The notes: generated by a model not told the origin, from the sequence alone. 64,000 bases of DNA from Patescibacteria group bacterium (GCA_018969615.1 JAGWYA010000002.1:3070-67069); one strand, 5' to 3'. Shown: positions 2,882 through 52,227, counted from the stretch's first letter. Numbers and translations are program-made.

Positions 2882-4423
2882 TTACACCTCGTCGCGCAGC
2901 CGGTAATGGAATGCTTCGCTGAGATGCTTCAAGGTCACCTGATCGCTCCGATCAAGGTCCGCGATCGTCCGCGCCGTCTTGAGCGCCCGATAATAGCCGC
3001 GCGCGGATAAGGTTTGTTTTGCATACAGTGTTTTTAAGAACTGTTCGCCTTCGGCATCAAGAGGGACCAGCGTATCGACCATGCGCGAGGTCATCTCGGA
3101 ATTCGTCATGATCGGGACCCCCGCCGCACGGAACCGCTCTTGCTGTCGCAGGCGCGCATCGGCGATCTGTTTTCGCATTGCCGCAGCGCCTTCCGTATCG
3201 CGCGTGCGCGCACGCAATTCATCAAGCTTCACGCGCGGAACTGCGATCTGCAGATCGATGCGGTCAAGCAGCGGACCGGAGATCTTCTTTTGATACCGGA
3301 TCGTCTCATAGGCGGAACAGGTGCATTCCTTTTCGTCATCCCCGTAATATCCGCACGGGCACGGGTTCATCGCCGCAACCAGGATGAATTTCGCCGGAAA
3401 GACCAGATTGTTCTTCACGCGCGAGATCACCACTTTTCCGCTCTCCAGCGGCTGGCGCAGCGCCTCTAAAAGATCACGCCTGAACTCGGGAAGCTCATCA
3501 AGGAACAGAACGCCGCGATGCGCAAGACTGATCTCGCCGGGGCGGGGATTCTGTCCGCCGCCGATGACCGCGACCGGGGATGCGGTCTGATGAGGGGACC
3601 TGAACGGACGCCAGCTGATGAACGCATCGTGCTTCAAAAGGCCCGCAGCGCTATAGATCTGCGTAACCTCAATGATCTCATCGTGCGCCGGCGGCGGGAG
3701 GAGCGATCCGAGCGCCTGAGCCAGCATCGTTTTTCCGGTTCCCGGACTTCCCTGCATCAGCAGATTATGACCGCCTGCCGCGGCGATCATCAGCGCGCGC
3801 TTTGCCGGCAACTGCCCTTTGATGTCCGCGATATCAACAAGATGGTGCGCCGACGAAAGCGATCCCCGGAGATCGGTCCGCGGCTGGAGAACGTTCGACG
3901 CACGTCCTTCAAGCATAAGAATAAGTTCCTGTAATGTGGCCGCGGGGAGCACCGAGACCCCTTCGACGATCGCCGCCTCAGCTGCGTTCGCCTTCGGGAC
4001 CACAACGGTTGTGAAACCGGCACGATGCGCGGCACGGGCGATGTTTAAAACTCCGCTCACGCTCCGGATCGCTCCATCCAAAGCGAGCTCGCCCGCAAAA
4101 AGCATCGCGGAAGCATCGAACGCTTTCATCTGCTTGGTCGCCAGGAGATAGCCGATCGCGATCCCGAGATCATATTGCGATCCGGTCTTCTTCACATCGG
4201 CGGGAGCCAAGTTCACCACGATCTTCCGGTTCTCCCGATTCGGCGGCTTCACGCCGCTGTTCTTCAGCGCCGAGCCGACGCGTTCTTTTGCTTCTGACAA
4301 CGATTTATCCGCAAGCCCGACGATCGCAAAACTATGCAGCCCCGAATGGATATCCGTCTCGATCTCGATCACCTGCGCATCGATCCCGTCAACCGATGCG
4401 GAAAAAACCTTGGAAAGGTTCAT
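2882..4423 (-). CDS. YifB/ComM family Mg-chelatase-like AAA+ ATPase
   Basis: 513-aa ORF. N-terminal Lon-like/ChlI domain, Walker A GSPGTGKT, Walker B VLFLDELPEF, CPCG zinc motif, C-terminal Mg_chelatase_C-like region. Confidence 0.85.
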   Translation of the reverse strand: MNLSKVFSASVDGIDAQVIEIETDIHSGLHSFAIVGLADKSLSEAKERVGSALKNSGVKPPNRENRKIVVNLAPADVKKTGSQYDLGIAIGYLLATKQMKAFDASAMLFAGELALDGAIRSVSGVLNIARAAHRAGFTTVVVPKANAAEAAIVEGVSVLPAATLQELILMLEGRASNVLQPRTDLRGSLSSAHHLVDIADIKGQLPAKRALMIAAAGGHNLLMQGSPGTGKTMLAQALGSLLPPPAHDEIIEVTQIYSAAGLLKHDAFISWRPFRSPHQTASPVAVIGGGQNPRPGEISLAHRGVLFLDELPEFRRDLLEALRQPLESGKVVISRVKNNLVFPAKFILVAAMNPCPCGYYGDDEKECTCSAYETIRYQKKISGPLLDRIDLQIAVPRVKLDELRARTRDTEGAAAMRKQIADARLRQQERFRAAGVPIMTNSEMTSRMVDTLVPLDAEGEQFLKTLYAKQTLSARGYYRALKTARTIADLDRSDQVTLKHLSEAFHYRLRDEV

Positions 4424-6095: not shown

Positions 6096-7535
6096 ATGAA
6101 CAAAAATGAGACCGGCGGAGCGTACTTCATCGCTCTCGGCGGCGGCAGCAACATCGGCGCAAAGATGCTCGTCCTGGTCTTTCCGCGGGAAAAGATGATC
6201 TTCATCTTCGACTGCGGCATCGGGATGTTGCCGAAGAACGGCAACGCGGATAACATCTACCTTTCAGATCTCGCGAAGTTCGCTGAGCTGATGGCGATGC
6301 ATCCCGGATTCCGGGTCGTGCTCATGCTCACGCATGCGCATATGGATCACATCGGCGGAGTTCCGCTTCTGAAGAAGCTCTACCCGCAGATCGAGATCCG
6401 CAGCACCGAGCCGACGGCCGGGGTCATGGAAGTGATGTGCCGGGATTCGATCAAGATCCGCAAAGGATCCGATCTGCCCGAACACTACACCGAAGATGAC
6501 CTCGTCAGATGTATAGAGTCCATTCATATCGTCCGGTCGGCTGACTGGATCGATCTGAAGCACAGCGGTTTCATGGTTCGGTTCGAACCCGCAGGTCATA
6601 TCTGCGGAGCCTCGACCGTCCTCGTGAAAACCCCGTACGGGATCTTCGCGGATTCCGGGGACATCAGCTTCTACGACACCACGACGGTTCGGGGTGCCTC
6701 CAAGAAGCTCTTCGACCAAGTTCGGTGGCTGTCGATCGAATCCACGAACGGAGATGTTTCGATCGAGGATCCGGAGACTGTCATGAGCGAGCTGGTGAAG
6801 GCGACTCTCGACATCAAGCGCAATAAAGGGAATAGCCTCATACCCGGATTCGCAAATGGCCGCGGACCGGATGTCGCGATCCGCCTCGGGAGAGAACTGC
6901 AGAAATACGGAATCAATGTGTGGTCAGGCGGGCTTCTCCGTCAAGTTACGGAGAGTCAAAGCAAGGCTCATTGGGGTTCCGATCGCCGCTTCCGGTATTC
7001 TTACCATCGGGGAAAGATGGGGAAACCGGTATTCAACCTGGAGCCTGAGAACGTTCGCTGGGTTCACGGATACAACTTCGGCGATATCGTTGATTCCTCG
7101 GGGAACGTCGTCGTCATTCCGAACGGGATGGTCGAGGCGGGGTACGCTCAGGACTTCCTTTCGGAATGGGCCGGGGACAGACGAAACGGCATCTTCATCG
7201 TCGGCTACCAAGCCGAAGGAACGAAAGGAAGGGAGCTTCTCGGCCTCAAGCCGGGCGGGAAGATCACCCTGACAAGTCCCATCAACGGGCACAGCGAGGA
7301 GATCACAGTGAACGCGACCGTGCGGCAGTTCCGTTTCTCAGGACACGCGGACGGCGACCAGCTCGCCGACTGGGTGCACCGGATGAACACGCACGACGGT
7401 CGTTCGCTCGACAAGATGATCCTGGTGCACGGAAATCCGAACGGACAGGAGGGTTTGCGTCAGAAAGCTCTGGCGCTGCCCAACAGTCCGAAAGAGATCC
7501 TCATCGGGAAAAACTGCGAGATCATCAAGCTGTAA
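6096..7535 (+). CDS. Metallo-beta-lactamase fold hydrolase, beta-CASP (RNase J / CPSF-like) family, divergent
   Basis: 479 aa. HxHxDH motif LTHAHMDHIGG; beta-CASP-type motif VGYQAEGTKGRELLG; C-terminal His (VHGNPNG). SD gaaggagg upstream of the ATG at 6096. Confidence 0.65.
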   Translation: MNKNETGGAYFIALGGGSNIGAKMLVLVFPREKMIFIFDCGIGMLPKNGNADNIYLSDLAKFAELMAMHPGFRVVLMLTHAHMDHIGGVPLLKKLYPQIEIRSTEPTAGVMEVMCRDSIKIRKGSDLPEHYTEDDLVRCIESIHIVRSADWIDLKHSGFMVRFEPAGHICGASTVLVKTPYGIFADSGDISFYDTTTVRGASKKLFDQVRWLSIESTNGDVSIEDPETVMSELVKATLDIKRNKGNSLIPGFANGRGPDVAIRLGRELQKYGINVWSGGLLRQVTESQSKAHWGSDRRFRYSYHRGKMGKPVFNLEPENVRWVHGYNFGDIVDSSGNVVVIPNGMVEAGYAQDFLSEWAGDRRNGIFIVGYQAEGTKGRELLGLKPGGKITLTSPINGHSEEITVNATVRQFRFSGHADGDQLADWVHRMNTHDGRSLDKMILVHGNPNGQEGLRQKALALPNSPKEILIGKNCEIIKL

Positions 7536-7540
7536 CGACA

Positions 7541-7578
7541 AGACCCCATGCACAACGTGTGTATGGGGTCTTTTTTTA
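7541..7578 (+). terminator. Rho-independent terminator (agaccccat ...13 nt... atggggtct + TTTTTTT)
   Basis: Perfect 9-bp stem followed by a 7-T run just after the stop codon at 7533-7535. Confidence 0.75.
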
Positions 7579-7599
7579 TTTTTGTATCATGTATTTCTT

Positions 7600-8000
7600 A
7601 AAAAACAAAAGTGTATTTTTTGGAGCATAAGAACCCGAGGATCTAAAAATACACTTTTGTTGCAACTTTAGGCTTATTCCCGCCTACTGCCCACTGCCTA
7701 CGCGCTACTCCCTACTTGGCGAATGGATTCAGAACCCATTTGCGAAATAGTTTCTAGGCGCGTTGCGAGGAAAAATGGAATAGCTCAAGAAGCAACGACG
7801 AGATCGCAGCATGAGCTGCCTCGAGGAGGAGCAACGAAGGGCTATTCCATTTTAACCGCAACCCACAGGGATAGGGTCAATTTTATTTATACCTTCGTTA
7901 CTCGTCAGAAAGGTAGCTACAGCTACGATTTCTTCCTCGCGCCTTACTCTAAATAAAATTGACCACTATCGCGCCAGTAATCTATTTCGCAAATGGGTTC
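7600..8000. repeat. About 400-nt non-coding region with four nested/serial inverted repeats; candidate structured RNA or decayed element
   Basis: Inverted repeats: caaaagtgtatttttt (7606-7621) / aaaaatacacttttg (7645-7659); aaaatggaatagc (7773-7785) / gctattccatttt (7840-7852); gtcaattttattta (7875-7890) / taaataaaattgac (7953-7966); outer pair gaacccatttgcgaaatag (7734-7752) / ctatttcgcaaatgggttc (7982-8000). The last pair overlaps the final codons of the M23 peptidase gene. Confidence 0.5.
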
Positions 8001-8980
8001 TTGGCCCCATAAACTTCAAAATGCAAATTACATCCCGAAGGCCCGTCATTCTGGCCCGTATCTCCCGTCAGCGCGATCTCCTTTCCTTTCGCCACATAAT
8101 CACCGACCGACACTAAGTTCTTTGAGGTATGCGCATACCGGGTCTTGGTGCCGTTCGGATGGTCGATCAAAATATAATTCCCGTATCCTCCGTTCCATCC
8201 CGAACCAACCACTTCAACGACCAATCCTTCGGCGGCCGCATACACCGGCGTACCGCATGCGTTCGTGATATCAACGGCATTATAGGAATACAACCGCCCG
8301 CCGTTCCAACCCGTCGTCGGGATCGAGAAATATCCAGGCAGGCTCGGCAGGCCGGAAAGCGACGCATAGTTCGTCGATCGCACCGGCCGCCCTCCCGGGA
8401 TGATCAGCGATGACGCGGTCGCGATCTGCGAAGGCACGAAGCCGGGGTTCGCATGAAGGATGCTTTGCACGGAAACATCGTACAGAGCGGCAATGCTGTC
8501 CAGTGTTTCACCGTCCTGTATCTGATGAAGCACGCCGTTCACCGGCAAGATCGTCAACTGCTGTCCCGGACGCAGCACTGACCAGTTAACACCCGTGTTC
8601 GCCCAGATCAATGTGTTCAATGAAATACCGAAGTTCGCCGCAATGATCGATGCCGAGTCGCCGGACTGGACCGTATAAAGCAATACGCCGCCGCGCGTCG
8701 GCACGACGTTGCTCAGCGGATTATCGCTGTTCAACAGCGCCGCACCGCCGACCACGTTCATCGGCGCATCAGTATTGACCGCGATCGCCGCCTCGCTGTC
8801 GATCGGACTTCCCGAATAGAGCGCCGCAGTGTCAGCGCTCAATGCGGCATCAACGGACAGCGGCTGCCCCGAAAGATAGAGCTGCGCCTTCAACGCCTGG
8901 TACCCGCCCGGCGCCGCAAAGATATATTGAGAGACCACAAAGTTCCCGATCGCCATGACCGCAATGAACACGACCGTCAT
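7982..8980 (-). CDS. LysM-domain / M23 family metallopeptidase (cell-wall endopeptidase), membrane-anchored
   Basis: N-terminal TM (MTVVFIAVMAIGNFVV); two LysM-like repeats (YTVQSGDSASIIAANFGISLNTLIWAN; HQIQDGETLDSIAALYDVSVQSILHAN); M23 motifs GGYGNYILIDH and HLHFEV. The ORF track extends to 9289, but that 5' extension overlaps uvrD; the start is placed at ATG 8980 (alternative 8956). Confidence 0.75.
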   Translation of the reverse strand: MTVVFIAVMAIGNFVVSQYIFAAPGGYQALKAQLYLSGQPLSVDAALSADTAALYSGSPIDSEAAIAVNTDAPMNVVGGAALLNSDNPLSNVVPTRGGVLLYTVQSGDSASIIAANFGISLNTLIWANTGVNWSVLRPGQQLTILPVNGVLHQIQDGETLDSIAALYDVSVQSILHANPGFVPSQIATASSLIIPGGRPVRSTNYASLSGLPSLPGYFSIPTTGWNGGRLYSYNAVDITNACGTPVYAAAEGLVVEVVGSGWNGGYGNYILIDHPNGTKTRYAHTSKNLVSVGDYVAKGKEIALTGDTGQNDGPSGCNLHFEVYGAKNPFAK

Positions 8981-9098
8981 CGCGGTCGTCCAATCTTTCA
9001 AAAAAGACGCGAGCGTCCTTGCTTTATGGAGTTGTTGACGTAAGATATCAATAATATCGATAGCGTAGCATGTGCCCCGTGCCCGCTCAATACCACCT

Positions 9099-10955
9099 AT
9101 GCCACAGCGCTCCCATCCTTCACCGCTCAATACAACCCAGGAACAAGCGGTCCGCCATTCCGGAGGACCGCTTTTGATCGCCGCCGGCGCCGGATCGGGA
9201 AAAACGAAAACGCTTACGAGCCGGCTTTTGCATCTTTTGGAGACCGGCGTCGCTCCGCAGGCGATCATTGCGATCACGTTCACCAACAAAGCCGCGAAAG
9301 AAATGAGGTCGAGAATAACGAATAATGAATTAGGAATAACGAACGGGGCGACTGATGAAAAAAAGAGCGGCGTAATTCATAATTCGAAATTCATACTTCC
9401 ATTTATAGGAACGTTCCACGCGCTCGGCGTCCGCATCCTGAAAGAAGAAGCGCACTGGGTGGGACGCACATCACACTTCACGATCTTCGACGACGAGGAT
9501 AGCGCGAGCCTGATCAAATCGATCCTGAAAGAACTGCAGCTCTCCAAGGACCGCTTCAGTCCGTACGCCGTCATCGGCCAGATCTCACGGATCAAGAATG
9601 AATTGATCAATGTCGATGAGTACGCGGACGAAGGCCGCTATGAACACACGATCGCGACCGTCTACCGGAAATATAATGAAACACTCCTGCACAGCAACGC
9701 GTTCGATTTTGACGATCTCATCGAGAAGGTCGTCCGCATCTTCCTTGAGCATCCCGAAGTGCTCGCCAAATACCGCGCCCGCTGGCAGTATGTTCTCGTC
9801 GATGAGTTCCAGGACGTGAACACGAACCAGTACCTGTTCGTAAAACTGCTCGCCCAGGAGCACAAGAACATCTTCGTGATCGGCGACGACGCGCAAAGCA
9901 TCTATGCGTTCCGCGGTTCCGATTTCCGGAACTTCCTCAATTTCGAAAAGGACTGGCCGGATGCGAAGGTGATCCTGCTGACCGAGAACTACCGTTCCAC
10001 GAAAAATATCATCAACGCCGCCTCGGCGCTCATCAAACATAATTCGTTCCAAAAGCCGAAGGATCTCTGGACCAGCAACCCGGAAGGGGAGCTGATCAAC
10101 GTTATGGCGTTCCAGAACGCCGAGGAGGAAGCGGTCTCGGTCGCCCAGCGGGTCCGCGAAGCGCTCGGCGGCGGCGAATCTCCGAAAGAGATCGCGGTCC
10201 TGTACCGTACGAACGCGCAATCCCGCGCGCTCGAGCAATCGCTCATCAGGAACAACATTCCGTACGAGATCTACGGCGGGCTGAAGTTCTATGCCCGCAA
10301 GGAGATCAAGGACATTGTCTCCGCGATCCGGTACGCGTTCAATCCGAAGGACCGCTCCGCGATCGACCGCATCACGAAAACGTTCAATAAAGGCCCGCGC
10401 ATCGCGCTTCTGGAAGCGCTTCCGCGTCTTGCCGAAGAAAGGCTGTCGCTCGTTGAACTGATCCAATATTTCCTTGAAGAGACCCGCTACACCGAATTCC
10501 TCGCCCTTCATTTCAAAAATCCCGATGAACGCCTTGAGAACATCAAAGAACTGATCCAATTTGCCGCGAGCTTCAACGATCCGCATGATTTCATCGAGCA
10601 GGTGACGCTGTTATCCTCGCTCGACGGCCGGCCGAAACTGCAGGAGAACGCGGTGAAACTGATGACGATCCATCTGTCCAAGGGCCTTGAGTTCGACCGC
10701 GTCTTCATCGTCGGCGCGAACGAAGGACTGCTTCCGCATGAACGCTCAATGATAAAGAACGATGACCTCGAAGAAGAGCGGCGCCTGATGTATGTCGCCA
10801 TAACCCGCGCCCGGAAACATCTCACGATCAGCTTTTATGATCTGCCGTCGCGGTTCCTCGGCGAACTGCCGCCGGAACTCATCGCATTCACGAAAGTCAG
10901 CAGTTACGGCGCCGAAACCCGCGACTGGGATGATGAAACGATATACTTAGAATAA
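9099..10955 (+). CDS. uvrD: UvrD/PcrA-type superfamily-1 DNA helicase carrying an in-frame AT-rich insertion between motifs Ia and Ib
   Basis: N-terminus PLNTTQEQAV...LIAAGAGSGKTKTLTSR (Walker A); motifs TFTNKAAKEM, GTFHALGVRIL, VLVDEFQDVN, VIGDDAQSIYAFRG, YRS, VTLLSSLDGRPK...LMTIHLSKGLEFDRVFIVG. The ORF track starts at GTG 9072; ATG 9099 matches the canonical N-terminus. Confidence 0.85.
   Translation: MPQRSHPSPLNTTQEQAVRHSGGPLLIAAGAGSGKTKTLTSRLLHLLETGVAPQAIIAITFTNKAAKEMRSRITNNELGITNGATDEKKSGVIHNSKFILPFIGTFHALGVRILKEEAHWVGRTSHFTIFDDEDSASLIKSILKELQLSKDRFSPYAVIGQISRIKNELINVDEYADEGRYEHTIATVYRKYNETLLHSNAFDFDDLIEKVVRIFLEHPEVLAKYRARWQYVLVDEFQDVNTNQYLFVKLLAQEHKNIFVIGDDAQSIYAFRGSDFRNFLNFEKDWPDAKVILLTENYRSTKNIINAASALIKHNSFQKPKDLWTSNPEGELINVMAFQNAEEEAVSVAQRVREALGGGESPKEIAVLYRTNAQSRALEQSLIRNNIPYEIYGGLKFYARKEIKDIVSAIRYAFNPKDRSAIDRITKTFNKGPRIALLEALPRLAEERLSLVELIQYFLEETRYTEFLALHFKNPDERLENIKELIQFAASFNDPHDFIEQVTLLSSLDGRPKLQENAVKLMTIHLSKGLEFDRVFIVGANEGLLPHERSMIKNDDLEEERRLMYVAITRARKHLTISFYDLPSRFLGELPPELIAFTKVSSYGAETRDWDDETIYLE
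9311..9396 (+). mobile_element. Roughly 87-nt AT-rich MITE-like insertion inside uvrD, in frame (encodes about TNNELGITNGATDEKKSGVIHNSKFILPF); the ends are homologous to the ends of the 10946-11365 cassette
   Basis: Left end gagaataacgaataatgaattaggaataacgaac matches ttagaataaggaagtatgaataaggaatcaggg at 10946. Right end ggcgtaattcataattcgaaattcatac matches ggccgtaattcctaattcgaaattcatg at 11331 (15-nt exact core taattcgaaattcat). Left and right ends are imperfect inverted repeats of each other (acgaataatgaattagg vs reverse complement tcgaattatgaattacg). Confidence 0.5.
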
Positions 10956-11365
10956 GGAAGTATGAATAAGGAATCAGGGAAAATAAGAAACTTTCAGGAC
11001 CTCGATGCATGGAGAGAAGGGCATCTCTTGGTTTTAGAGACCTATAAGGTCACAAAAAAATTCCCCAGGGAAGAAATTTTTGGATTGATAAGTCAGATGC
11101 GGCGGTGCGCGGTATCAATTACTTCTAATATTGCTGAAGGATTCAGTAGGCAGTCCTACAAAGAAAAGTTGCAATTTTATTCAATATCGCAAGGATCGGT
11201 CACTGAACTCCAAAATCAACTGCTTATATCAAAAGATGTGGGCTATATGGACGAAAGTGAATTTCAAAAAATTTCCGAACAGTCGATAAAAGTACATAAG
11301 ATCATAAACGGCCTGATCAGGCATTCTAAGGCCGTAATTCCTAATTCCTAATTCGAAATTCATGA
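10946..11365 (+). mobile_element. About 420-bp AT-rich cassette with imperfect terminal inverted repeats (gaat[a/t]aggaa-type) carrying a four-helix-bundle protein gene; it exactly fills the uvrD-rsmA intergenic space
   Basis: Base composition is visibly lower in GC than both neighbours. The left end contains the uvrD stop codon and the right end abuts the rsmA ATG. Homologous miniature copies lie at 9311-9396 and 37253-37340. Confidence 0.5.
10962..11351 (+). CDS. Four-helix-bundle protein (23S rRNA intervening-sequence protein family / Avd-like, PF05635/TIGR02436-like)
   Basis: 129 aa. SD aaggaag then ATG. Sequence (FQDLDAWREGHLLVLETYKVTKKFPREEIFGLISQMRRCAVSITSNIAEGFSRQSYKEKLQFYSISQGSVTELQNQLLIS) matches the conserved core of this family as I recall it. 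The gene is AT-rich relative to the genome. Confidence 0.7.
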   Translation: MNKESGKIRNFQDLDAWREGHLLVLETYKVTKKFPREEIFGLISQMRRCAVSITSNIAEGFSRQSYKEKLQFYSISQGSVTELQNQLLISKDVGYMDESEFQKISEQSIKVHKIINGLIRHSKAVIPNS

Positions 11366-12250: not shown

Positions 12251-13084
12251 GTGACAGATGTCGATCTGTGTCAAATCAGCCTTTTTGAGACGCTGATCAC
12301 GTCAATGACAATGGGGAAGGCACTGCTTGCAACAACTATTGTAGGGATCGCCCTCGTCGGCGCAGTCTTTTTGATACAAAAAAACAACGTCCCTACGCCG
12401 GCATCCGATGCGGCACAAACATCAGGAGCGAATAACATCGCCTCTTCTCAACCGTTCGTCGAAAAAGCACCGATCGACCAGCTTGCGGCGCTCACCCCGG
12501 GCACAAACCTGACCCAAGAATTCGGTGACGTTCTTGCGCAAGAGATCAGCAATGGAAATCCGGGTGGGCCTACAAACCTTAATGGACAAAATTCGATCGG
12601 CGTGCCAAACGCAGATACCTTTGCACAAAACCTTATCAGTCAGGCGGTTACAAAGTTCGATCCCTCAAAACTTTCCCCGGTCGTTAATGATTCCGATCTG
12701 CATATTATCCAAGATAACAGCAAGGCTGCGGTTATGAATTATGTCAGCCAACTTCATGCGATTGTCGTCGATGAAGCGCATGCGATTCCTTCTGGAGTTG
12801 TTTCAGATAATCCGACCATTGATCAGGTCACAACGCTCGTGCCGATCTATAAGGATATGCTCACCAAAGTCTTTGCCCTTTCCGTACCAAGTGTCGCTAT
12901 CGACATCCAAAAAAAAGAATTGGAATTGCTTATGAAAAAGGCGTATATTCTTTCGGCGATCGCAAACTATAAGAACGATCCGGTTACCACTATTCTCGTT
13001 TCCCAAGAGCTGGTCACTGTCGATCAAGAATTCAGCGATCTTTCAAATTCCGTAAAGGCGCTTATTCAAAAATATTCAGCATAA
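12251..13084 (+). CDS. Hypothetical membrane-anchored protein (first gene of the T4SS-like cluster)
   Basis: GTG 12251 with SD aaaggag at 12236-12242 (ORF track 11816..13084; the upstream part overlaps rsmA). N-terminal TM (ALLATTIVGIALVGAVFLI), Asn/Gln-rich extracellular region. Confidence 0.5.
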   Translation: MTDVDLCQISLFETLITSMTMGKALLATTIVGIALVGAVFLIQKNNVPTPASDAAQTSGANNIASSQPFVEKAPIDQLAALTPGTNLTQEFGDVLAQEISNGNPGGPTNLNGQNSIGVPNADTFAQNLISQAVTKFDPSKLSPVVNDSDLHIIQDNSKAAVMNYVSQLHAIVVDEAHAIPSGVVSDNPTIDQVTTLVPIYKDMLTKVFALSVPSVAIDIQKKELELLMKKAYILSAIANYKNDPVTTILVSQELVTVDQEFSDLSNSVKALIQKYSA

Positions 13085-13087
13085 AAC

Positions 13088-14665
13088 ATGCGCTATAAGA
13101 ATATACAAAAGATTATTGCGGGAATCCTTATAGGAACACTATTCTTCCCTCAATTAAGCGCTCTTCAGGCGCCGGCACCAAAAGCTCACGCTGTCTTGGG
13201 CGTAGGCGATATTACATTTACTGATGTGATCATGGACCCGACCACGCTTCTCTATTATTCAGATATGGTGACGGCCACTGATCTCAACTCCAGCGCAAAT
13301 ACAGCTTCATGGGCAACAAAAATATTAGAACTTGCAAAACAGGTCGCCTATGCCGCTTTCAAAGCCGCGATCCTCGATCAACTCGTGCAGGCGCTTATTA
13401 ATTGGATAAACAATGACGGCAAAGGACCGATCATCGCCGATTGGAATCAATTCTTCTATAATGCCGAAAATAACGCTGCGGGCGCGTTCATTGACGGACT
13501 TTCCGGAGGTGTCCTTTGTTCGCCATTCAACCTCCAGGTCCAACTTTCACTTGCGCCGGTACAGAATTTTAGCGATGTCACCTGTACGCTTAATCAAGTG
13601 ATCGGCAATATTGATAGCTTTATAAGCGACTTCCGCAATGGAAGCTGGCTTGCCTATCAGCAGATCTGGGACCCTCAAAATAACTTCTATGGTGCGGCCA
13701 TGATCGCCCAAGATGATCTGTTGAAACAAGAGTATAGCGCCGTCAATACATCACAAACCGAAGGAATAGCCGGACAAGGGTTCCTGTCCTTTACAAAATG
13801 CGATTATACGCCAGATCCTAACGGATCATATGTGCAAGTAGGAGGAAATTACATTCTTGCAAGTACTAATAATGCCAGCTCTCGATATTCAAAATCATGT
13901 CACGTTACCACGCCAGCTCAGGTCGCCGTTGAAGCGACAAAACAAGCACTGGTTGATGTCGGGATCGGGAATATTATAAACTCGCAGGATCTTTCCGCAT
14001 ATCTTACGGCGATCTTCAATGCGGCGATCAATCGATTGAAAGTAGCGGCAGCGAACGGTTTAGTTGGCCTTCTTTCGGACGCAACGCAAGGGGTGCATGT
14101 CAATCCGGTCTTCCCCTGTGCCGGAATTACCGGGCAGGCGTTTACCGCATGCATGCAATCGGTCAACTCTGAAAAGAATCTGGCGACAAGCTATCAGGAT
14201 CAGAGCAACACACTGGTTACCAGCGTGCTTGATGTTCGCCAGCAGATCAATGATACGCTTACCCAGGCGATCGCCCTCGAATCGCCGTATGTCGATGCGC
14301 TTACTCAGCTTTCAGCATGCCAGGCAAGCGCTACCGCAACACTCGCGACCGAACAGGGAATTCTCAATTCGCTCCAAGATTCACTGTCAACAAACCAAAC
14401 TTATCTTGATACCCTCAACGGTCTTTCAACGCCGATCGTCACTGCAACCAGTTCAAGCGTAACCGCGGATGATCTGGCAAAGATAAGCGCCATAGCCTCA
14501 GCTGCGACCGCAGCCGCAAATAATATCGGCGACGCTAACGCCGCTCTTCAAGATGCGAAAAACCAGCTCCAAACGATCCAAGCGAACGTCTCGGCGAATC
14601 TCCCGGGGATCCAAGCCCAGCTTCTCTCCTGCCCGGTCATAAGCGCAACAAGTACAACGCCTTAA
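13088..14665 (+). CDS. Large secreted hypothetical protein (signal peptide; Ala/Asn/Gln/Thr-rich)
   Basis: 525 aa; signal peptide MRYKNIQKIIAGILIGTLFFPQLSALQAPAPKAHA; no catalytic motif recognised. Confidence 0.5.
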   Translation: MRYKNIQKIIAGILIGTLFFPQLSALQAPAPKAHAVLGVGDITFTDVIMDPTTLLYYSDMVTATDLNSSANTASWATKILELAKQVAYAAFKAAILDQLVQALINWINNDGKGPIIADWNQFFYNAENNAAGAFIDGLSGGVLCSPFNLQVQLSLAPVQNFSDVTCTLNQVIGNIDSFISDFRNGSWLAYQQIWDPQNNFYGAAMIAQDDLLKQEYSAVNTSQTEGIAGQGFLSFTKCDYTPDPNGSYVQVGGNYILASTNNASSRYSKSCHVTTPAQVAVEATKQALVDVGIGNIINSQDLSAYLTAIFNAAINRLKVAAANGLVGLLSDATQGVHVNPVFPCAGITGQAFTACMQSVNSEKNLATSYQDQSNTLVTSVLDVRQQINDTLTQAIALESPYVDALTQLSACQASATATLATEQGILNSLQDSLSTNQTYLDTLNGLSTPIVTATSSSVTADDLAKISAIASAATAAANNIGDANAALQDAKNQLQTIQANVSANLPGIQAQLLSCPVISATSTTP

Positions 14666-24366: not shown

Positions 24367-24795
24367 CAGGTCCAGCGGTTTGACCACCACCTGCCGCGCT
24401 TCGCCTTCGCCGATGCTTTCCGTTTTGATGTCAGGCCGCGTCGCAAGCTCCACATGCACCAACCGGCGTTCATAGGCGTTCATCGCCGGGAGAGAAACCT
24501 CTTTCTTCTCCAGAAGCGCTTTGCGCGCGGCCGCTTTCGCGAGCTCGCCGATCAGACGCTCCCGTTCACGCTTGTAGTTGTTCACGTCAACGATCACGCG
24601 TTCCAGTTGCATCTTCTTCGCCATCAAACGCACGACATGGTCGAGGTCCTGCATCAAACGCGGAAGGAATCGGGCAACCACATCCTCGTCATGGATAAAA
24701 ATGCTCACGCGGCGCCCTTCAGCGTCCACGTCAACCGAGAAGTCCAGCCCGGACGGCCGTAACATCTGTTCGATCGTTTGTTTAAGCGAGTCCAT
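24364..24795 (-). CDS. Jag/KhpB-like RNA-binding protein (Jag_N + KH + R3H)
   Basis: 143 aa; conserved position downstream of yidC in the rnpA-yidC-jag cluster; C-terminal R3H-like ERRLVHVELA motif. Confidence 0.7.
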   Translation of the reverse strand: MDSLKQTIEQMLRPSGLDFSVDVDAEGRRVSIFIHDEDVVARFLPRLMQDLDHVVRLMAKKMQLERVIVDVNNYKRERERLIGELAKAAARKALLEKKEVSLPAMNAYERRLVHVELATRPDIKTESIGEGEARQVVVKPLDL

Positions 24796-25501
24796 GTACT
24801 TTTTCTTCTTCTTTAATATTGATGGTCTTATTGATATAGATCTGCTGACCGGCGGTAAAGACCGAGGTCACCACCCAGTACAAACCGATCGCCGAAGGAA
24901 GAGTTCCCAGGATCACCACCGTGATCACCGGACCGATGAAGATCATCTGCCGCGTCATTTGATCCGCAGTCGAGAGCTCCTGCCCCTTTTCGAGCTTCGG
25001 TAGTGCCAGGCGCCCTTGCACGTATTGTGCCGCTGCCGCCAGGATAACCATAAGAATACTCGGATTTTGGAGATTGAGCAAGTGCAGGAACGTAGCGTTT
25101 ATCTGCTGCGGGACGGCAACAAAGCTATACAGCAGCGTCAGAGACTCCGGAGTGATCTTCTGTAAAAAGACGCGATAAAGTCCGATCAACACCGGAAGCT
25201 GGACCAGCAGCATCAAAAATCCCGAAAAAGGGTTCACATTATGCTGCCGATAGAGCTCCATCATAGCCTGTGCCTGTTTTTCTTTATCATCCTTATGCTG
25301 ATGCTGGATCTTTTTAATATCCGGCTGAAGCTTTTGAATAAGGGTCTGGTTCCGGGCGCCTTTATAGAAAAGCGGCATGAATGCGATACGGATCGCGAGC
25401 GTCAAAAGAATGATCGCAACGCCAAGATCATGAAACGCGATCGTGTTATAGAACACGATGAGCGCATTGAGGAACGGGGTGTAGAAAATGGCTTGGAGCA
25501 T
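24782..25501 (-). CDS. yidC: Membrane protein insertase YidC/Oxa1 (short form)
   Basis: 239 aa; multi-TM; conserved region LAIRIAFMPLFYKGARNQTLIQKLQPDIKKIQHQHKDDKEKQAQAMMELYRQHNVNPFSG; located between rnpA and jag. Confidence 0.8.
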   Translation of the reverse strand: MLQAIFYTPFLNALIVFYNTIAFHDLGVAIILLTLAIRIAFMPLFYKGARNQTLIQKLQPDIKKIQHQHKDDKEKQAQAMMELYRQHNVNPFSGFLMLLVQLPVLIGLYRVFLQKITPESLTLLYSFVAVPQQINATFLHLLNLQNPSILMVILAAAAQYVQGRLALPKLEKGQELSTADQMTRQMIFIGPVITVVILGTLPSAIGLYWVVTSVFTAGQQIYINKTINIKEEEKVHGLA

Positions 25502-25516
25502 AGAAAGATAAATGGC

Positions 25517-25846
25517 TTACCGGGCGATGCCGCGGACCGCTGCTGCGACCGATCGGGTAAGATCGTGCGCATCGGTGCGGGATGCTGCGGCGTTCACAAT
25601 GAAAAGAAGATCGGAACGGGAGAGAAGCTTCGGGGCGTGCATCTCCCGCAAGGCATTAAAGAAGATACGGCGGAGGCGCGTGCGGTCGGATGCTTTTTTC
25701 ACGGTCCCTTTTTTAAGAACAACGCCAAAACGGGCATAGGGGAACGGGCTCGGGAACACTTTAACTGAAAATTCGGGGAAGGGGATCGTGCGGCCTCGCA
25801 TGTCCCGGGTTGACTGGATCGGAAGACGGTATTTCTTTGCCAGCAT
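25517..25846 (-). CDS. rnpA: Ribonuclease P protein component
   Basis: 109 aa basic protein with KKYRL start, RTRLRRIF motif, and position downstream of rpmH. Confidence 0.8.
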   Translation of the reverse strand: MLAKKYRLPIQSTRDMRGRTIPFPEFSVKVFPSPFPYARFGVVLKKGTVKKASDRTRLRRIFFNALREMHAPKLLSRSDLLFIVNAAASRTDAHDLTRSVAAAVRGIAR

Positions 25847-25886
25847 AGATACGCGAATCGCGGGACATGCCCGCGAATTGCTTTAC

Positions 25887-26021
25887 TTAGACCGTCAACC
25901 GATGACGCCCCTTATGACGGCGCGCCGTCAGTACTCGGCGCCCTCCCTTCGTCCTGTTCCGGCGAAGGAAACCATGCGTCCGGGCCCGTTTTCGCTTTTT
26001 AGGTTGATATGTTTGCGACAT
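25887..26021 (-). CDS. rpmH: 50S ribosomal protein L34
   Basis: 44 aa [44 protein letters not shown]; the ORF track extends to 26225, but the canonical L34 starts at the ATG whose complement is CAT at 26019-26021. Confidence 0.9.
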
Positions 26022-26217
26022 GAAACCAGTATATACTATCGTTTCAGGCGAGGCAAGCAAGGAATTCGCTCCGCTGCACGGCCATTTTTTGCGATCCGAC
26101 AGGCATTGCATGGCATACCAGCGCACGTTTGATACAAAATGGCAAATTACTATGGACAAACGATCTGCGTCTCGGTCATACTGATAAAAAATACACCCGT
26201 TGCTGATGCAAAAACAG

Positions 26218-26226
26218 TTATCCACA
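26218..26226 (+). promoter_or_regulatory. Perfect DnaA box TTATCCACA in the rpmH-dnaA intergenic region (candidate oriC/dnaA promoter element)
   Basis: Exact 9-mer consensus; nearby AT-rich tract taaaatgaatatatatttt at about 26280-26300. Confidence 0.6.
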
Positions 26227-26392
26227 AGGCATCAACAGATTATTATCTTTTCACTGTTTCCTTCTGCGGCGCATCCGTTTAAAATGAATATATATTTTCG
26301 GTGTGTTTCTCCGGTACTTCTTAAAAATCATTTTTCAGTCCGTTGAAGTAAGGCAACGGGCGGTGGGAGAGTAATCATTTTATTTTTTTATC

Positions 26393-27760
26393 ATGGAGTT
26401 CGAACAATTGTGGCAAACTGCGCTCGGTGAAATAGAAACTCAGGTTTCTAAGCCGAACTTTGCGACCTGGCTGAAGAACAGTAAGCTCTTGGACAAGCAA
26501 GAAGGCGTGGTCTTGGTCGGACTTCCGAACACTTTTGCAAAAGAATGGGTGGAGAACAAGTATCAGAAGATCATTTTGAACGCGCTGCGCAATCAGGACC
26601 AGGCGACAAAGAAGGTTCAGTTCACGGTGCATAACACGAACATCGCTCCGACGCCGCTCCCGCAGCGAAAACCGAAGCAGGTCAGCGAAGAAGAGTTCAA
26701 GAAACAGCTTGCGTTCGAAGAACTGAAGATCGATCCGGAAACGAACCTCAATCCGCGCTATCGCCTGAGTTCGTTTGTCGTCGGCAAAACGAACGAACTC
26801 GCGTACGCCGCCGCAAGCGCGGTTATTGATGAGATCGGCCGGAAATATAATCCGTTGTTCTTCTACGGCGGCACCGGACTGGGAAAGACCCATCTCATCC
26901 AGGCGATCGGGAACGAGATCAAAGTGCGCTACAAGGATAAAGTACGCGTGAAATATGTGTCGTCCGAAAAATTCACGAACGATGTGATCTACGGGATCCG
27001 GAACAAGCGCATGGAGGACATGAAGGACAAGTACCGGAACGTCGACGTTCTGATCATCGATGATATTCAGTTCATCGGCGGCAAGACCACGACGGAAGAG
27101 GAGTTCTTCCATACCTTCAACGCGCTCTACGAGAACAATAAACAGATCATCATCTCGTCCGACCGCCCGCCGAAGTTCATCCCGACCCTGGAAGACCGCC
27201 TGCGGTCCCGGTTCGAAGGCGGCATGATCGCGGATATCTCCTATCCTGACTACGAACTGCGCCTTGCTATCTTAAAGACTAAGCTCCAGGAGCGCGGAGC
27301 GGCCTTGCCGGAGAACATCGTTGAGTTCATCGCCAATAAGATCCAGAAGAACCTTCGCGAACTGGAGGGGGTGCTGAACCGGATCCTGTTCTACCAGTAC
27401 GCAAAGAAGGAAGTGACCCTGAAGATGGTGGAAGAGATCGTCAGCGGCGTCCTTCAGCAGCCGACCAAGAACATCAATCCGAACCAGGTCATTAAAGCGG
27501 TCGCTGATTACTATGAGATCTCCCAGAACGATCTGACCGGCCGCTGCCGCCAGAAAAGCATCGTAGAACCGCGCCAGATCACCATGTACCTCCTCCGGGA
27601 CATTCTCGGCCTTTCCTACCCGGATATCGGCCAAAAACTGGGCAAGCGCGACCATACCACGGCGATCTATGCGACGAATAAGATCTCCGAAGAGATCAAT
27701 AAAGATCAGGACCTCAATCAGAAGATCCTGGCGATCAAAGATCTGGTTTATAAAGAATAA
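26393..27760 (+). CDS. dnaA: Chromosomal replication initiator protein DnaA
   Basis: 455 aa; N-terminal domain, Walker A GGTGLGKTHL, Walker B VLIIDDIQF, sensor/arginine finger, C-terminal DNA-binding HTH (TTAIYATNKI). Confidence 0.95.
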   Translation: MEFEQLWQTALGEIETQVSKPNFATWLKNSKLLDKQEGVVLVGLPNTFAKEWVENKYQKIILNALRNQDQATKKVQFTVHNTNIAPTPLPQRKPKQVSEEEFKKQLAFEELKIDPETNLNPRYRLSSFVVGKTNELAYAAASAVIDEIGRKYNPLFFYGGTGLGKTHLIQAIGNEIKVRYKDKVRVKYVSSEKFTNDVIYGIRNKRMEDMKDKYRNVDVLIIDDIQFIGGKTTTEEEFFHTFNALYENNKQIIISSDRPPKFIPTLEDRLRSRFEGGMIADISYPDYELRLAILKTKLQERGAALPENIVEFIANKIQKNLRELEGVLNRILFYQYAKKEVTLKMVEEIVSGVLQQPTKNINPNQVIKAVADYYEISQNDLTGRCRQKSIVEPRQITMYLLRDILGLSYPDIGQKLGKRDHTTAIYATNKISEEINKDQDLNQKILAIKDLVYKE

Positions 27761-27762
27761 GG

Positions 27763-27853
27763 TGGGGATAAGGGATAGGATAGTCTCTGTATAAATATGA
27801 ACGTTCACACTGCATATAAAAATTATCCGAAGATCTTCAGAGGGTTATCCACA
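27763..27853 (+). promoter_or_regulatory. Candidate oriC in the dnaA-dnaN spacer: DnaA boxes TGGGGATAA (27763-27771, reverse orientation, 1 mismatch), TTATCCGAA (27823-27831) and perfect TTATCCACA (27845-27853), plus an AT-rich stretch
   Basis: Boxes read directly from the sequence; AT-rich segment tgtataaatatgaacgttcacactgcatataaaaatta between them. Confidence 0.55.
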
Positions 27854-27959
27854 AGAAATCAGCGGAAAGAAAAACTCTTTTTTCGTTATTCCGTCTGGCT
27901 TCTCCGGTTTTCTCCCCTGTATTAACATCCCCTATTACCTCTTCTAATTCTTTATCTAT

Positions 27960-29069
27960 ATGAAATTAGTAATACTCAAAAATAATCTCCGCGAAGGATT
28001 AACGGCGATTGACCGGGCTGCGGGAGAACATGCGAACCTTCCGATCCTGAAAAATGTCCTGGTAAAGACCGCTGATAATAAGATCCGCCTTTCGGCGACG
28101 AACCTTGAGATCGCCGCATCGCGGTCCGTATCGGGAAAGATCGTTGAGGAAGGGAGTATTACGGTTCCGCTTGCGACCTTGCTGACGATCGTGAACAATA
28201 CGGCAAGCGAACGGATCACGCTCGAGACCGACCAGAACACGCTGTTTTTCAAGACGGATAACTATGAAGCGACCATTCAGGGTCTTCCTGAAGAGGAATT
28301 TCCGATCATTCCGAAGATCGAGAATAAGAAGGAATATCTCTCGTTCAGCGCGGATGTTCTGCGCGATGCGGTCCTGAAGATCCTTTCAACGATCCAAGTT
28401 TCAGAGATCCGTCCCGAGATCGGCGGGATGCTTTTTGATTTTGAGATCACGTACCTGAAATTTGCGGGAACGGACAGTTTCCGGCTTGCGGAAAAAACGA
28501 TCACGGAAACGAATTTTACCAGCACGTTTACCCGCGGGTTTAAAGTGATCGTTCCGCTGAAAACGATGCAGGAAGTGCTCAGGATCATGGTTAAAGGCGA
28601 GGTGACGATCTTCATTGATCCGAACCAGATCCTCTTTCAAGGCGAGGATACCGAGATCATTTCCCGGCTTATCGAGGGGACCTATCCCGAGTATGACGCG
28701 ATCACGCCGAAATCATTTGAAACGGAAATGACGATCGAACGCGAGCATCTGATGAATGCGGTCAAATTGGTCAGTACGTTCAGCGGAAAAGTGAACGAGA
28801 TCAAAATGAAACTTCACGACGGAAAGAAGGTGTTGGAGGTCTATTCGATGAATCAGGCGCTGGGTGAAAATAAATATCTGGTGCCGGTCAAAGCGAAAGG
28901 GGAATCGTTCGAGACCGCGTTCAATTGGCGGTATGTCATGGAAGGATTGAAGAACTTTGAAAGCGCCGAAGTGTTCTTCGGTGTGAATGGCAGCCATCGT
29001 GCGGCGCTGCTGAAGAATCCGAGCGACGCATCATATTTTTATATTGTGATGCCGATCAATATGAACTAA
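27960..29069 (+). CDS. dnaN: DNA polymerase III beta sliding clamp
   Basis: 369 aa, immediately downstream of dnaA; typical MKLVILKNNLREGL start and three-domain length. Confidence 0.9.
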   Translation: MKLVILKNNLREGLTAIDRAAGEHANLPILKNVLVKTADNKIRLSATNLEIAASRSVSGKIVEEGSITVPLATLLTIVNNTASERITLETDQNTLFFKTDNYEATIQGLPEEEFPIIPKIENKKEYLSFSADVLRDAVLKILSTIQVSEIRPEIGGMLFDFEITYLKFAGTDSFRLAEKTITETNFTSTFTRGFKVIVPLKTMQEVLRIMVKGEVTIFIDPNQILFQGEDTEIISRLIEGTYPEYDAITPKSFETEMTIEREHLMNAVKLVSTFSGKVNEIKMKLHDGKKVLEVYSMNQALGENKYLVPVKAKGESFETAFNWRYVMEGLKNFESAEVFFGVNGSHRAALLKNPSDASYFYIVMPINMN

Positions 29070-52155: not shown

Positions 52156-52227
52156 GTCCCCGTGGTTCAATGGATAGAACGTAGCCCTCCGAAGGCTGAG
52201 ATCGAGGTTCGATTCCTCGCGGGGACA
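52156..52227 (+). tRNA. tRNA-Arg (anticodon CCG); CCA not encoded
   Basis: 7-bp acceptor stem GTCCCCG/CGGGGAC; D-stem GTTC/GAAC; anticodon stem-loop with loop CTCCGAA (U33, anticodon CCG, A37); T-stem CGAGG/CCTCG with loop TTCGATT; discriminator A. Confidence 0.8.

Follow-up and report, generated by a model that had tools for sequence, protein, structure and literature searches.

A Pseudo-Symmetric Structured Element of about 270 Nucleotides in Patescibacteria

Results

An Inverted-Repeat Element between Convergent Genes

A 64,000-nt stretch of DNA from a Patescibacteria group bacterium (GCA_018969615.1 JAGWYA010000002.1:3070-67069; hereafter, the window) contains, at positions 7,600 to 8,000, an intergenic region rich in inverted repeats, which separates a beta-CASP gene (6096-7535, + strand) from a LysM-M23 peptidase gene on the − strand. 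These genes had been described as divergent in an original prediction made from the sequence alone; they are in fact convergent. Judging from comparison with homologous sequences, the segment at 7731-8001 is one member of a previously undescribed family of structured elements, about 270 nt in length, in Patescibacteria.

All four inverted-repeat pairs that had been predicted in this region are present, nearly at the positions proposed, and three of them form a single unit. The fourth, at 7604-7661, had been taken as part of the nested structure and is a separate terminator-like hairpin. The outer pair exists but is longer than the 19 nt originally assigned to it, with 7731-7762 and 7970-8001 being 88% complementary over 32 nt and the first 20 nt matching perfectly (2 occurrences in the 64-kb window, 0.02 expected). 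The second pair (7772-7784 and 7841-7853) and the third (7875-7889 and 7950-7964) are complementary at 13/13 and 15/15 positions, respectively. The inventory of repeats had been incomplete, since it missed two 5-bp tip hairpins, the central sequence CCCACAGGG, and a third, degenerate copy of the peptidase gene end at 7712-7730. Folding the segment 7725-8005 as RNA bore out the predicted structure, with z about −9.3 on both strands (−9.4 for + and −9.3 for −); the folding energies are −118.9 kcal/mol (+) and −122.3 kcal/mol (−), the mean for shuffled sequences is approximately −70 kcal/mol, and none of 200 shuffles was equally stable. The parts of the window element are as follows.

7731-8001 (271 nt), no strand assigned: whole cloverleaf element with four-way junction; the family + strand is the + strand of the window
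7731-7762, + strand: 5′ arm of stem A, an inverted repeat whose outermost 11 nt, AGAACCCATTT, are the conserved family terminus
7763-7861, + strand: arm B, with inverted repeats, covariation, and an excess of G-U over A-C
7763-7767 with 7857-7861: arm B junction helix, TTGCG/CGCAA
7772-7784 with 7841-7853: arm B basal stem
7785-7805 with 7820-7840: arm B middle helix, with two tandem G·A/A·G mismatches between covarying C-G pairs
7806-7810 with 7815-7819: arm B tip hairpin, 5 bp
7862-7870, no strand assigned: central mini-hairpin CCC-ACA-GGG, CCCACAGGG, with invariant CCC and GGG (bases that had been specified in the search pattern) and a variable loop
7871-7969, no strand assigned: arm C, with inverted repeats and covariation
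7871-7874 with 7966-7969: arm C junction helix, ATAG/CTAT
7875-7889 with 7950-7964: arm C basal stem
7890-7912 with 7927-7949: arm C middle helix, with tandem U·C/C·U on the + strand, equivalent to tandem G·A on the − strand
7913-7917 with 7922-7926: arm C tip hairpin, 5 bp
7970-8001, + strand: 3′ arm of stem A; 7982-8001 is also the last six codons and stop of the peptidase gene (− strand)

The middle base of the mini-hairpin, 7866, is the exact dyad center of the window element. The only open reading frame (ORF) within the region (7723-7956) had been judged to be without support, and we agree: as a protein-coding candidate it has no Pfam match, and family members differ there by insertions and deletions.

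The Element Belongs to a Family of Homologous Sequences

Contigs encoding homologues of the beta-CASP protein of the window served as the starting set for the search. In one of these, L002, whose beta-CASP protein is 71% identical, the same element occupies the same place and exhibits compensatory differences in every stem, and in another (L004), found like L002 by synteny, the element follows the peptidase gene and is on the same strand as that gene. A first sequence pattern, based on these copies and applied to GTDB, yielded at least three genuine matches, in two Saccharibacteria metagenome-assembled genomes (MAGs) and one further Patescibacteria MAG; four other matches to this pattern (L012, L013, L014, and L016) proved to be chance matches. 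A second, independent pattern, which represents the center and right half of the element, recovered at least 40 metagenome loci, all genuine-looking. The counts from both scans are lower bounds, from which neither prevalence nor copies per genome can be read. The named hosts are Patescibacteria MAGs, including the two Saccharibacteria, and the remaining sequences are metagenome contigs to which no host was assigned.

Removal of duplicates left 37 distinct full-length elements of 266-316 nt that align from end to end, with partial and extra copies besides. The window element aligns with the 36 others, and its full-length match to the nhmmer family profile (E = 1.5e-61) is the only one in the 64-kb window; neither a 20-mer search permitting 3 mismatches nor nhmmer with full and half profiles revealed further copies there. 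Family members share the terminal sequence AGAACCCAT.../...ATGGGTTCT, and the extreme ends are the best-conserved sequence of the element, with pairwise identity among members having a median of 60% and a maximum of 89%.

Four sets of alignment columns (CAACCC, GGGATA, TATCGC, and ATGGGTT) were fixed by the second search pattern, and the sample is thus biased toward conserved cores. Independent support for the junction bases therefore rests on the copies found by synteny, on those matching the first pattern, and on a second element copy in L031 (also in L042 and L051) that was detected by nhmmer and had not been selected by the pattern. This unselected copy keeps all of the pattern-fixed bases and carries a 4-nt central loop (CCC-AAAT-GGG).

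Compensatory Changes Maintain a Cloverleaf Fold

The fold common to the family consists of a terminal helix A of 27-32 bp, arm B, a CCC-NNN-GGG mini-hairpin, and arm C, which meet at a junction with no unpaired bases. Each of the two arms is approximately 100 nt in length and proceeds from a basal stem through a helix containing two tandem purine-purine mismatches to a 5-bp tip hairpin. For the alignment of 37 sequences, RNAalifold predicts 82 pairs, 58 of which exhibit compensatory changes. When an explicit cloverleaf of 91 pairs was evaluated, 94.1% of the cells held standard pairs, versus 35-44% with the partners slid by 1-3 columns; 64 of the 91 pairs have changed on both sides, and none of 500 shuffles reached any of the five measures used. 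Compensatory changes that preserve pairing, a generic hallmark of structured RNAs, are present in every helix of the cloverleaf, including helices 1-2 of terminal stem A, in which 17 of the 27 pairs have changed on both sides. The multibranch fold that had been proposed around the two inner hairpins is accordingly one that selection maintains. In the comparison with L002, compensatory changes occur in every stem despite the 71% identity of the beta-CASP proteins, which points to selection acting on the element in place; these differences are among the changes in relatives that had been suggested as a check on the fold.

Regions of arms B and C that at first appear to be large internal loops are in fact helices by mutual information and pair counts, with covarying Watson-Crick pairs (for example, G-C in 22 and C-G in 12 sequences at one position) bracketing two tandem G·A/A·G mismatches. 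The pairs flanking the junction (GCG|TTGCG, CGCAA|CCC, GGG|ATA, and TAT|CGC) exhibit no variation, an invariance that is partly fixed by the search pattern.

At compact alignment columns 68, 94, 176, and 202, one Watson-Crick pair of arm B and one of arm C flip together, from G-C/C-G to C-G/G-C. This concerted flip separates subfamily I (25 sequences) from subfamily II (12 sequences, including that of the window), and it preserves complementarity both within and between the arms. Either one past event or contact between the arms might account for it.

Four members (L025, L050, L055, and copy 2 of L031) carry hairpin insertions of 20-45 nt at fixed peripheral points, in the manner of RNA expansion segments. 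L025 and L050, although they belong to different subfamilies, share a similar palindromic insertion of approximately 20 nt in arm B (alignment columns 147-171; CCTGCCTGCC.GCAGGCAGG), which represents either an optional conserved hairpin or an independent small insertion.

Pseudo-Two-Fold Symmetry and the Question of Strand

The element is pseudo-two-fold symmetric. The consensus of arm B is 69% identical to the reverse complement of the arm C consensus, the tandem G·A motifs reside on the + strand in arm B and on the − strand in arm C (read as U·C/C·U on the + strand), and on its opposite strand every element gives a full-length match to its own profile, with E values of 1e-17 to 1e-42. Two causes of this symmetry, extension of the element into a rod and loop-loop contacts of arm B with arm C, were considered and rejected, as no inter-arm helix is well supported. 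Where the consensus of arm B departs from the reverse complement of arm C, the mismatches are conserved, an indication that pairing is not what drives the symmetry, and the basal stems of the two arms cannot pair with each other in subfamily II. Two short, partly conserved inter-arm complementarities remain.

Three observations make the family + strand somewhat more likely to be the functional one. First, the arm B stem contains 26 G-U against 5 A-C appositions when read on the + strand, whatever the orientation of neighboring genes. Second, co-directional flanking genes, as read from ORF maps, favor the + over the − strand by approximately 13 to 4. Third, flank sequences in L031, L052, and L027 contain a hairpin and T-run directly after the 3′ arm on the + strand.

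The right half of the element includes a weak outward sigma-70-like arrangement, consisting of TTGGCC (TTGACC in the window, where the arrangement spans 7958-7987), 17-18 nt, and TATTTT, which is formed by the basal stem of arm C together with the 3′ arm and lies approximately 7 nt before an ATG in the 3′ arm (within ATGGGTTCT). Right-hand neighbors are on the + strand in about 22 of 31 cases, many of them starting within 0-70 nt. As a promoter, TTGGCC-17-TATTTT was rejected, given that it matches only 8 of 12 consensus positions and was not called in the window, where it is spoilt by the gene end. The arm ATG was similarly rejected as a start codon. Near-adjacent downstream ORFs are divided about evenly between in-frame and out-of-frame positions when the flanks are read by eye, and eight right-flank ORFs of at least 72 aa start exactly at this ATG; neither observation is a clear departure from the one-in-three chance expectation.

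Searches for Known Families

A search of the window with Rfam 15 at the gathering threshold detected only one tRNA (at 52156), and a search of 7450-8150 at E ≤ 10 gave weak matches on the terminator hairpins and none above noise on 7731-8001. Five consensus-like members also failed to match any of 4227 Rfam models; comparison with Rfam, which had been raised as a way in which the region might be explained, thus assigned it to no known family. ARAGORN reported no tRNA or tmRNA at the element, and a full-text literature search that included the terminal sequences found no description of it.

Several specific identities were also considered. The element does not itself constitute an intrinsic terminator, as neither arm is followed by a U tract in the window; the hairpin at 7540-7582 (+) fits that description, and the one at 7661-7604 (−) does so loosely. 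6S RNA (RF00013), which folds as a rod with a large central bubble, gives no Rfam match, and covariation supports a four-way junction. A gene-specific cis-regulatory RNA is inconsistent with the range of neighbors, which include an M23 peptidase at 5 of the 37 loci, type IV pilus ATPases at 3, and otherwise diverse housekeeping genes. The element fails the defining tests of every family that could be tested here.

A Peptidase Gene End Encoded by the Terminal Stem

The right outer arm is, as had been recognized, the end of the LysM-M23 peptidase ORF (AAG AAC CCA TTT GCG AAA TAG, encoding KNPFAK-stop), and the perfect 20-nt match between the arms stops exactly at the stop codon TAG. The arm sequence is AGAACCCATCTCAAAAATA in most family members, and AGAACCCATTTGCGAAATAG or a close variant forms the gene end at five loci (the window, L002, L018, L050, and L004). 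The remaining 32 of the 37 aligned loci hold the same element, terminal sequence included, in unrelated contexts. This distribution reverses the causal direction that had been assumed: the left arm is not an inverted copy of the gene end, but rather the terminal stem of an already existing element contains the gene end and now encodes it. It likewise contradicts the proposals that the repeats are the scar of an inverted gene-end duplication or a regulatory 3′ element specific to the peptidase.

Only the peptidase loci carry a further copy of the gene end, directly beyond the far arm. The features concerned in the window are as follows.

7712-7730, − strand: third gene-end copy (X''), G AAT CCA TTC GCC AAG TAG, encoding NPFAK-stop with synonymous differences
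7982-9289, − strand: LysM-M23 peptidase, mechanical ORF of 435 aa with a TTG start

The third copy is kept in L002, L018, and L050, where the sequence next to it is not conserved, and in the window it is able to pair with the adjacent left arm. The resulting 19-nt repeat at the peptidase loci is identical at 14/19 positions and is specific to that gene. When 270 nt (GAACCC...GGGTTCT on the − strand) are removed, ...GCC AA is joined to G AAT CCA TTC GCC AAG TAG, restoring the same C terminus. The peptidase gene therefore probably once ended in the third copy, which the inserted element has since displaced. Orthologous sites that lack the element occur in L001 (beta-CASP 71%) and in the more distant L005-L011, whose peptidases end in NPFAK, NPFSK, or NPFVK.

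Following the gene, the interior of the element runs B-then-C at two loci (L004 and L050) and C-then-B at three (the window, L002, and L018). Both orders would be expected either from insertion of a palindromic-ended unit in either orientation or from later recombination between the arms. No polymorphism of orientation was seen for five elements that were each recovered in identical form from 2-3 assemblies, with the same flank orientation in every case.

The true start of the peptidase gene is probably an ATG near 8980, given homologues of 331-344 aa; the mechanical ORF overlaps the opposite-strand uvrD ORF (9072-10955). Downstream on the − strand, no terminator-like hairpin is encountered until the one at 7661-7604, which is followed by U6, and it is thus most probable that the peptidase transcript reads through the element, which would be carried in its 3′ untranslated region (UTR) as the minus-strand version of the family. 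To this extent, the earlier suggestion of a minus-strand transcript with a structured 3′ UTR holds for the window.

Genomic Contexts of Other Copies

An all-against-all BLASTP comparison of ORFs within 5 kb of the 37 loci revealed no recurrent protein family near the element other than the M23 peptidase (5 loci) and type IV pilus ATPases (3 loci); no reverse transcriptase, transposase, or recombinase recurred. The translated flanks include rpsL, rpmE, rpsH, infB/rbfA, ileS, rpoB, ftsH, scpA/scpB, metK, dprA, and pilB, and a tRNA gene (L045) and a 16S rRNA gene (L031) are also found nearby. Spacing to the flanking ORFs is 0-5 nt in many copies. Relatives of the window genome carry the element in the same neighborhood at other junctions, beside ComM in L028 and at the start of pilB, 4.6 kb from dnaN, in L022. 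None of the 32 non-peptidase loci exhibits a flanking direct repeat of the kind produced by target-site duplication. BLAST and two pattern scans of viral contigs gave no phage, plasmid, or viral-contig match, with one candidate (L059) being a chance match.

Two direct copies of the element, 512 nt apart, are situated around rpmE in L031 (10668-11770, − strand), an arrangement that recurs unchanged in L042 and L051. The upstream copy is followed by a truncated second version of the 5′ end of rpmE and by a promoter close to consensus (TTGCCA-17-TATAAT), and the downstream copy by a terminator. Divergent from this pair is the 16S rRNA gene of L031 (12295-13729), which is interrupted by an ORF with a LAGLIDADG motif (12883-13449), presumably an intron-encoded homing endonuclease.

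Neighboring Features of the Window

Two hairpins lie between the beta-CASP gene and the element.

7540-7582 (hairpin 7540-7572), + strand: intrinsic terminator of the beta-CASP gene, a 15-bp stem followed by a T-run, with counterparts in L001 and L002
7604-7661, − strand: separate hairpin with a perfect A+T-rich stem of 17 bp (7604-7620 with 7645-7661, 17/17) and a 24-nt loop, followed by U6

The second of these is a probable terminator of the peptidase transcript outside the element. It was missed by a consensus terminator scan because of its 24-nt loop, and it is not conserved in L002.

The origin region of the window (24782-29069) comprises yidC (− strand), dnaA (26393-27760), and dnaN (27960-29069). 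The minimum of cumulative GC skew, at approximately 26-28 kb, coincides with the dnaA/dnaN region, and the element is located about 18 kb from dnaA. Between uvrD and ksgA (10962-11351), and also in L007 (2927-3286), is a small gene for a four-helix protein resembling 23S_rRNA_IVP and bAvd, a family shared with accessory proteins of diversity-generating retroelements. In L001, which lacks the element, the spacer between the beta-CASP and peptidase genes holds a low-G+C gene (3271-3642) for a 123-aa protein with a PAS_3 domain.

Discussion

Comparison with Known Systems

By analogy with established systems, the element most resembles ERIC and Correia sequences in its genomic behavior and orphan structured RNAs in its structural depth. 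ERIC (IRU) and Correia (NEMIS) sequences are imperfect but conserved palindromes situated in intergenic regions that are transcribed, in Enterobacteria and Neisseria, respectively; they form simple hairpins of 100-155 bp and occur in tens to hundreds of copies, Correia sequences with a TA duplication. Like these, the element is a discrete palindromic unit with conserved, defined ends and no gene of its own, which is found between genes and in 3′ UTRs in either orientation, is variably present or absent at orthologous sites, is conserved in sequence across species, and folds in mRNA on either strand. Unlike them, it is 270 nt in length and of low copy number, forms a four-way junction with invariant core pairs, and possesses motif-bearing arms that have undergone extensive compensatory evolution. 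With raiA, OLE, ROOL, and GOLLD RNAs, the element shares a medium-to-large size, heavy covariation, conserved junctions and internal-loop motifs, and the absence of an obvious neighboring gene that would explain its function. However, those RNAs are clear as to strand, whereas the element is pseudo-symmetric and, as far as seen, restricted to Patescibacteria.

Three further systems bear a partial likeness. The inverted terminal repeat of adeno-associated virus (AAV), a parvovirus, is a T-shaped A-B-B'-C-C'-A' palindrome with flip and flop forms, which serves as the 125-nt telomere of a linear single-stranded DNA genome and is resolved by Rep. The element similarly has an outer palindrome around two inner ones and an interior found in both orientations relative to the flank, but it resides inside a bacterial chromosome, is twice as long, and exhibits no polymorphism within populations that we could see. 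As in retron msr-msd RNAs, terminal inverted repeats (a1/a2 in retrons) close a structure with separate hairpin domains; in contrast to retrons, the element is not adjacent to a reverse transcriptase, does not provide the context of a branching G, and has arms related by inversion. The processing stalks of rRNAs, RNase III substrates formed from the sequences flanking 16S and 23S rRNA, are also long helices that join the two ends of a structured RNA within a longer transcript, although their helix is not conserved in sequence at its distal portion, as that of the element is.

A Candidate Family of Structured RNAs

Our preferred interpretation, which we hold tentatively, is that these sequences represent a new family of structured RNAs that behaves as a discrete insertion unit. 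The depth of covariation, the conservation in place of orthologous copies, and the expansion-type insertions all point in this direction, and the option of a stable noncoding RNA that had been raised for the region survives. The element would act as an RNA, transcribed either by read-through of neighboring genes or under its own weak promoter, with its ends defined or protected by the terminal helix and its tandem-G·A arms serving as putative protein-binding modules. As a discrete, low-copy insertion unit, it may have been relocated during the evolution of Patescibacteria. In the window lineage, the element lies 19 nt ahead of where the M23 peptidase ORF ends; NPFAK-stop is now encoded by its terminal arm, the other arm has co-evolved so as to remain complementary, and the probable original gene end survives, displaced, just beyond the far arm.

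A number of observations weigh against an RNA family. Termini that are conserved in sequence are more typical of substrates for recombination or transposition than of RNA helices, and elements that are 87-89% identical occur in different contexts, with the three most similar occupying three contexts. The apparent invariance of the junction columns is in part a matter of ascertainment, since these bases were fixed by the search pattern. G-U and A-C appositions are about equally frequent in stems A (30:26) and C (15:18), the − strand folds as stably as the + strand or more so, both in consensus and sequence by sequence, and the purine-purine motif of arm C, being on the − strand, is not explained by an RNA made from one strand. 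No consistent promoter was found at the aligned loci, where many copies abut flanking ORFs with zero spacing. In the window, a promoter scan identified no promoter-like site on the + strand, and transcription of that strand would have to start between two terminator-like hairpins.

It is possible, though doubtful, that the element, with the same tandem-G·A module on opposite strands around a perfect four-way junction, is functional on both strands, being either a new housekeeping RNA or ribonucleoprotein of the candidate phyla radiation or a new low-copy, structure-dependent mobile unit able to supply the 3′ ends of the genes that it enters. A function of this kind would involve RNAs made from either direction or single-stranded DNA bound by a symmetric host factor.

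Alternative Explanations

The main rival to the RNA interpretation is a nonautonomous mobile or recombination element of DNA, similar to a miniature inverted-repeat transposable element (MITE), composed of two halves of approximately 135 bp that are inverted copies of each other. An enzyme encoded in trans would recognize the conserved terminus and sub-terminal hairpin on single-stranded DNA, such that the same motif would be required on opposite strands. We consider such an element unlikely, even though it would explain the symmetry, the conserved termini, and the patchy placement. The pseudo-two-fold arrangement of tandem G·A motifs (on the + strand in B and the − strand in C), the terminal inverted repeats whose extreme ends are the best-conserved sequence, and the precision of the boundaries, in that removal of 270 nt rejoins the peptidase ORF, are all as expected of a MITE. 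The same may be said of the empty orthologous sites in L001 and L005-L011, the occurrence in both orientations relative to the peptidase gene, the 87-89% identical elements in different contexts, and the two direct copies around rpmE in L031. However, there is no target-site duplication outside the peptidase loci, and near-identical copies in different places were not seen, the best identity between elements with different flanks being 89% (median 60% in the family) and the 64-kb window holding a single copy. No transposase, recombinase, or reverse transcriptase recurs nearby, none of the elements was found in phage, plasmid, or viral collections, and no autonomous partner turned up, though the search patterns required a fused center. 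Moreover, relatives keep the element in the same chromosomal neighborhood, and orthologous copies remain intact and covarying over deep divergence, unlike a parked nonautonomous element.

An immobile, cis-acting site in the chromosome, which as a cruciform or in single-stranded form would bind a host protein symmetrically during replication, segregation, or DNA uptake, is improbable. It would account for the dyad symmetry, the presence of one motif on both strands, and the low copy number, and the element is near the origin in both cases in which this can be judged (the window, at 18 kb from dnaA, and L022, at 4.6 kb from dnaN). Yet these are two data points, formation of the long terminal stem would require all 270 nt to be single stranded, the 3-bp mini-hairpin and the expansion-type insertions fit RNA better, and no DnaA box, parS, or dif site was recognized by eye.

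More improbable still is a 3′-UTR regulator specific to the peptidase, which would pair onto the stop-codon region to control termination or mRNA decay. The stem does include the last codons and stop in the window, L002, L018, L050, and L004, and, whichever way the interior is oriented, the mRNA presents gene end, interior, complement, and third copy in this same order. Conservation extends to the third copy but not to its neighboring sequence, and once ribosomes have opened the stem this copy could offer a different partner for pairing. Nonetheless, the peptidase accounts for only 5 of the 37 aligned loci, the element predates and extends beyond this association, and close relatives do without it.

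We see very little chance that the repeats are recombination sites of an invertible DNA switch, in which a 207-bp interior would flip and thereby change transcription. Inverted repeats of 20-32 bp do flank the interior, and both orientations exist across lineages (the window, L002, and L018 versus L004 and L050), but five independently assembled elements from 2-3 samples each exhibit the same flank orientation, and there is no recurrent invertase nearby. Flipping would leave the protein unchanged and, because of the symmetry, would alter the RNA little, and promoter scanning of the interior yielded nothing that qualified on the + strand and a single weak match on the − strand. The chance of a retron-like template RNA is slighter again. 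Stem A would correspond to a1/a2, arm B to msr, and arm C to the template for a cDNA hairpin that would function as the complementary strand, as would suit end-to-end inverted repeats that enclose two hairpins, an arm B that behaves as a + strand structure, and an arm C purine motif on the complement; however, no reverse transcriptase lies next to any of the 37 loci (the window neighbors are the beta-CASP nuclease and the M23 peptidase), the junction has no unpaired branching G, and nothing in retrons corresponds to the similarity of B to C. A chance origin, or a neutral scar left when the gene end was duplicated in inverse orientation, for which the copying of the gene end by the arm might speak, can be given practically no weight in view of z = −9.3 and 37 distinct full-length homologues with covariation.

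Implications

Annotation of the element would be desirable for the correct calling of the ends and starts of adjoining genes. Patescibacteria, ultra-small bacteria of the candidate phyla radiation, represent a large share of bacterial diversity and possess tiny genomes with almost no spare DNA. Our literature search found no description of a lineage-specific noncoding RNA in this group. A 270-nt element kept by compensatory evolution from Saccharibacteria to other Patescibacteria lineages must pay its way. If it functions at the level of DNA, it would constitute a novel kind of insertion unit, one that harmlessly takes the place of host gene ends. If it functions as RNA, it would define a new class of structured RNAs, unusual in its symmetric design and equipped with candidate protein-binding modules, and could be tested in the cultivable and genetically tractable Saccharibacteria.

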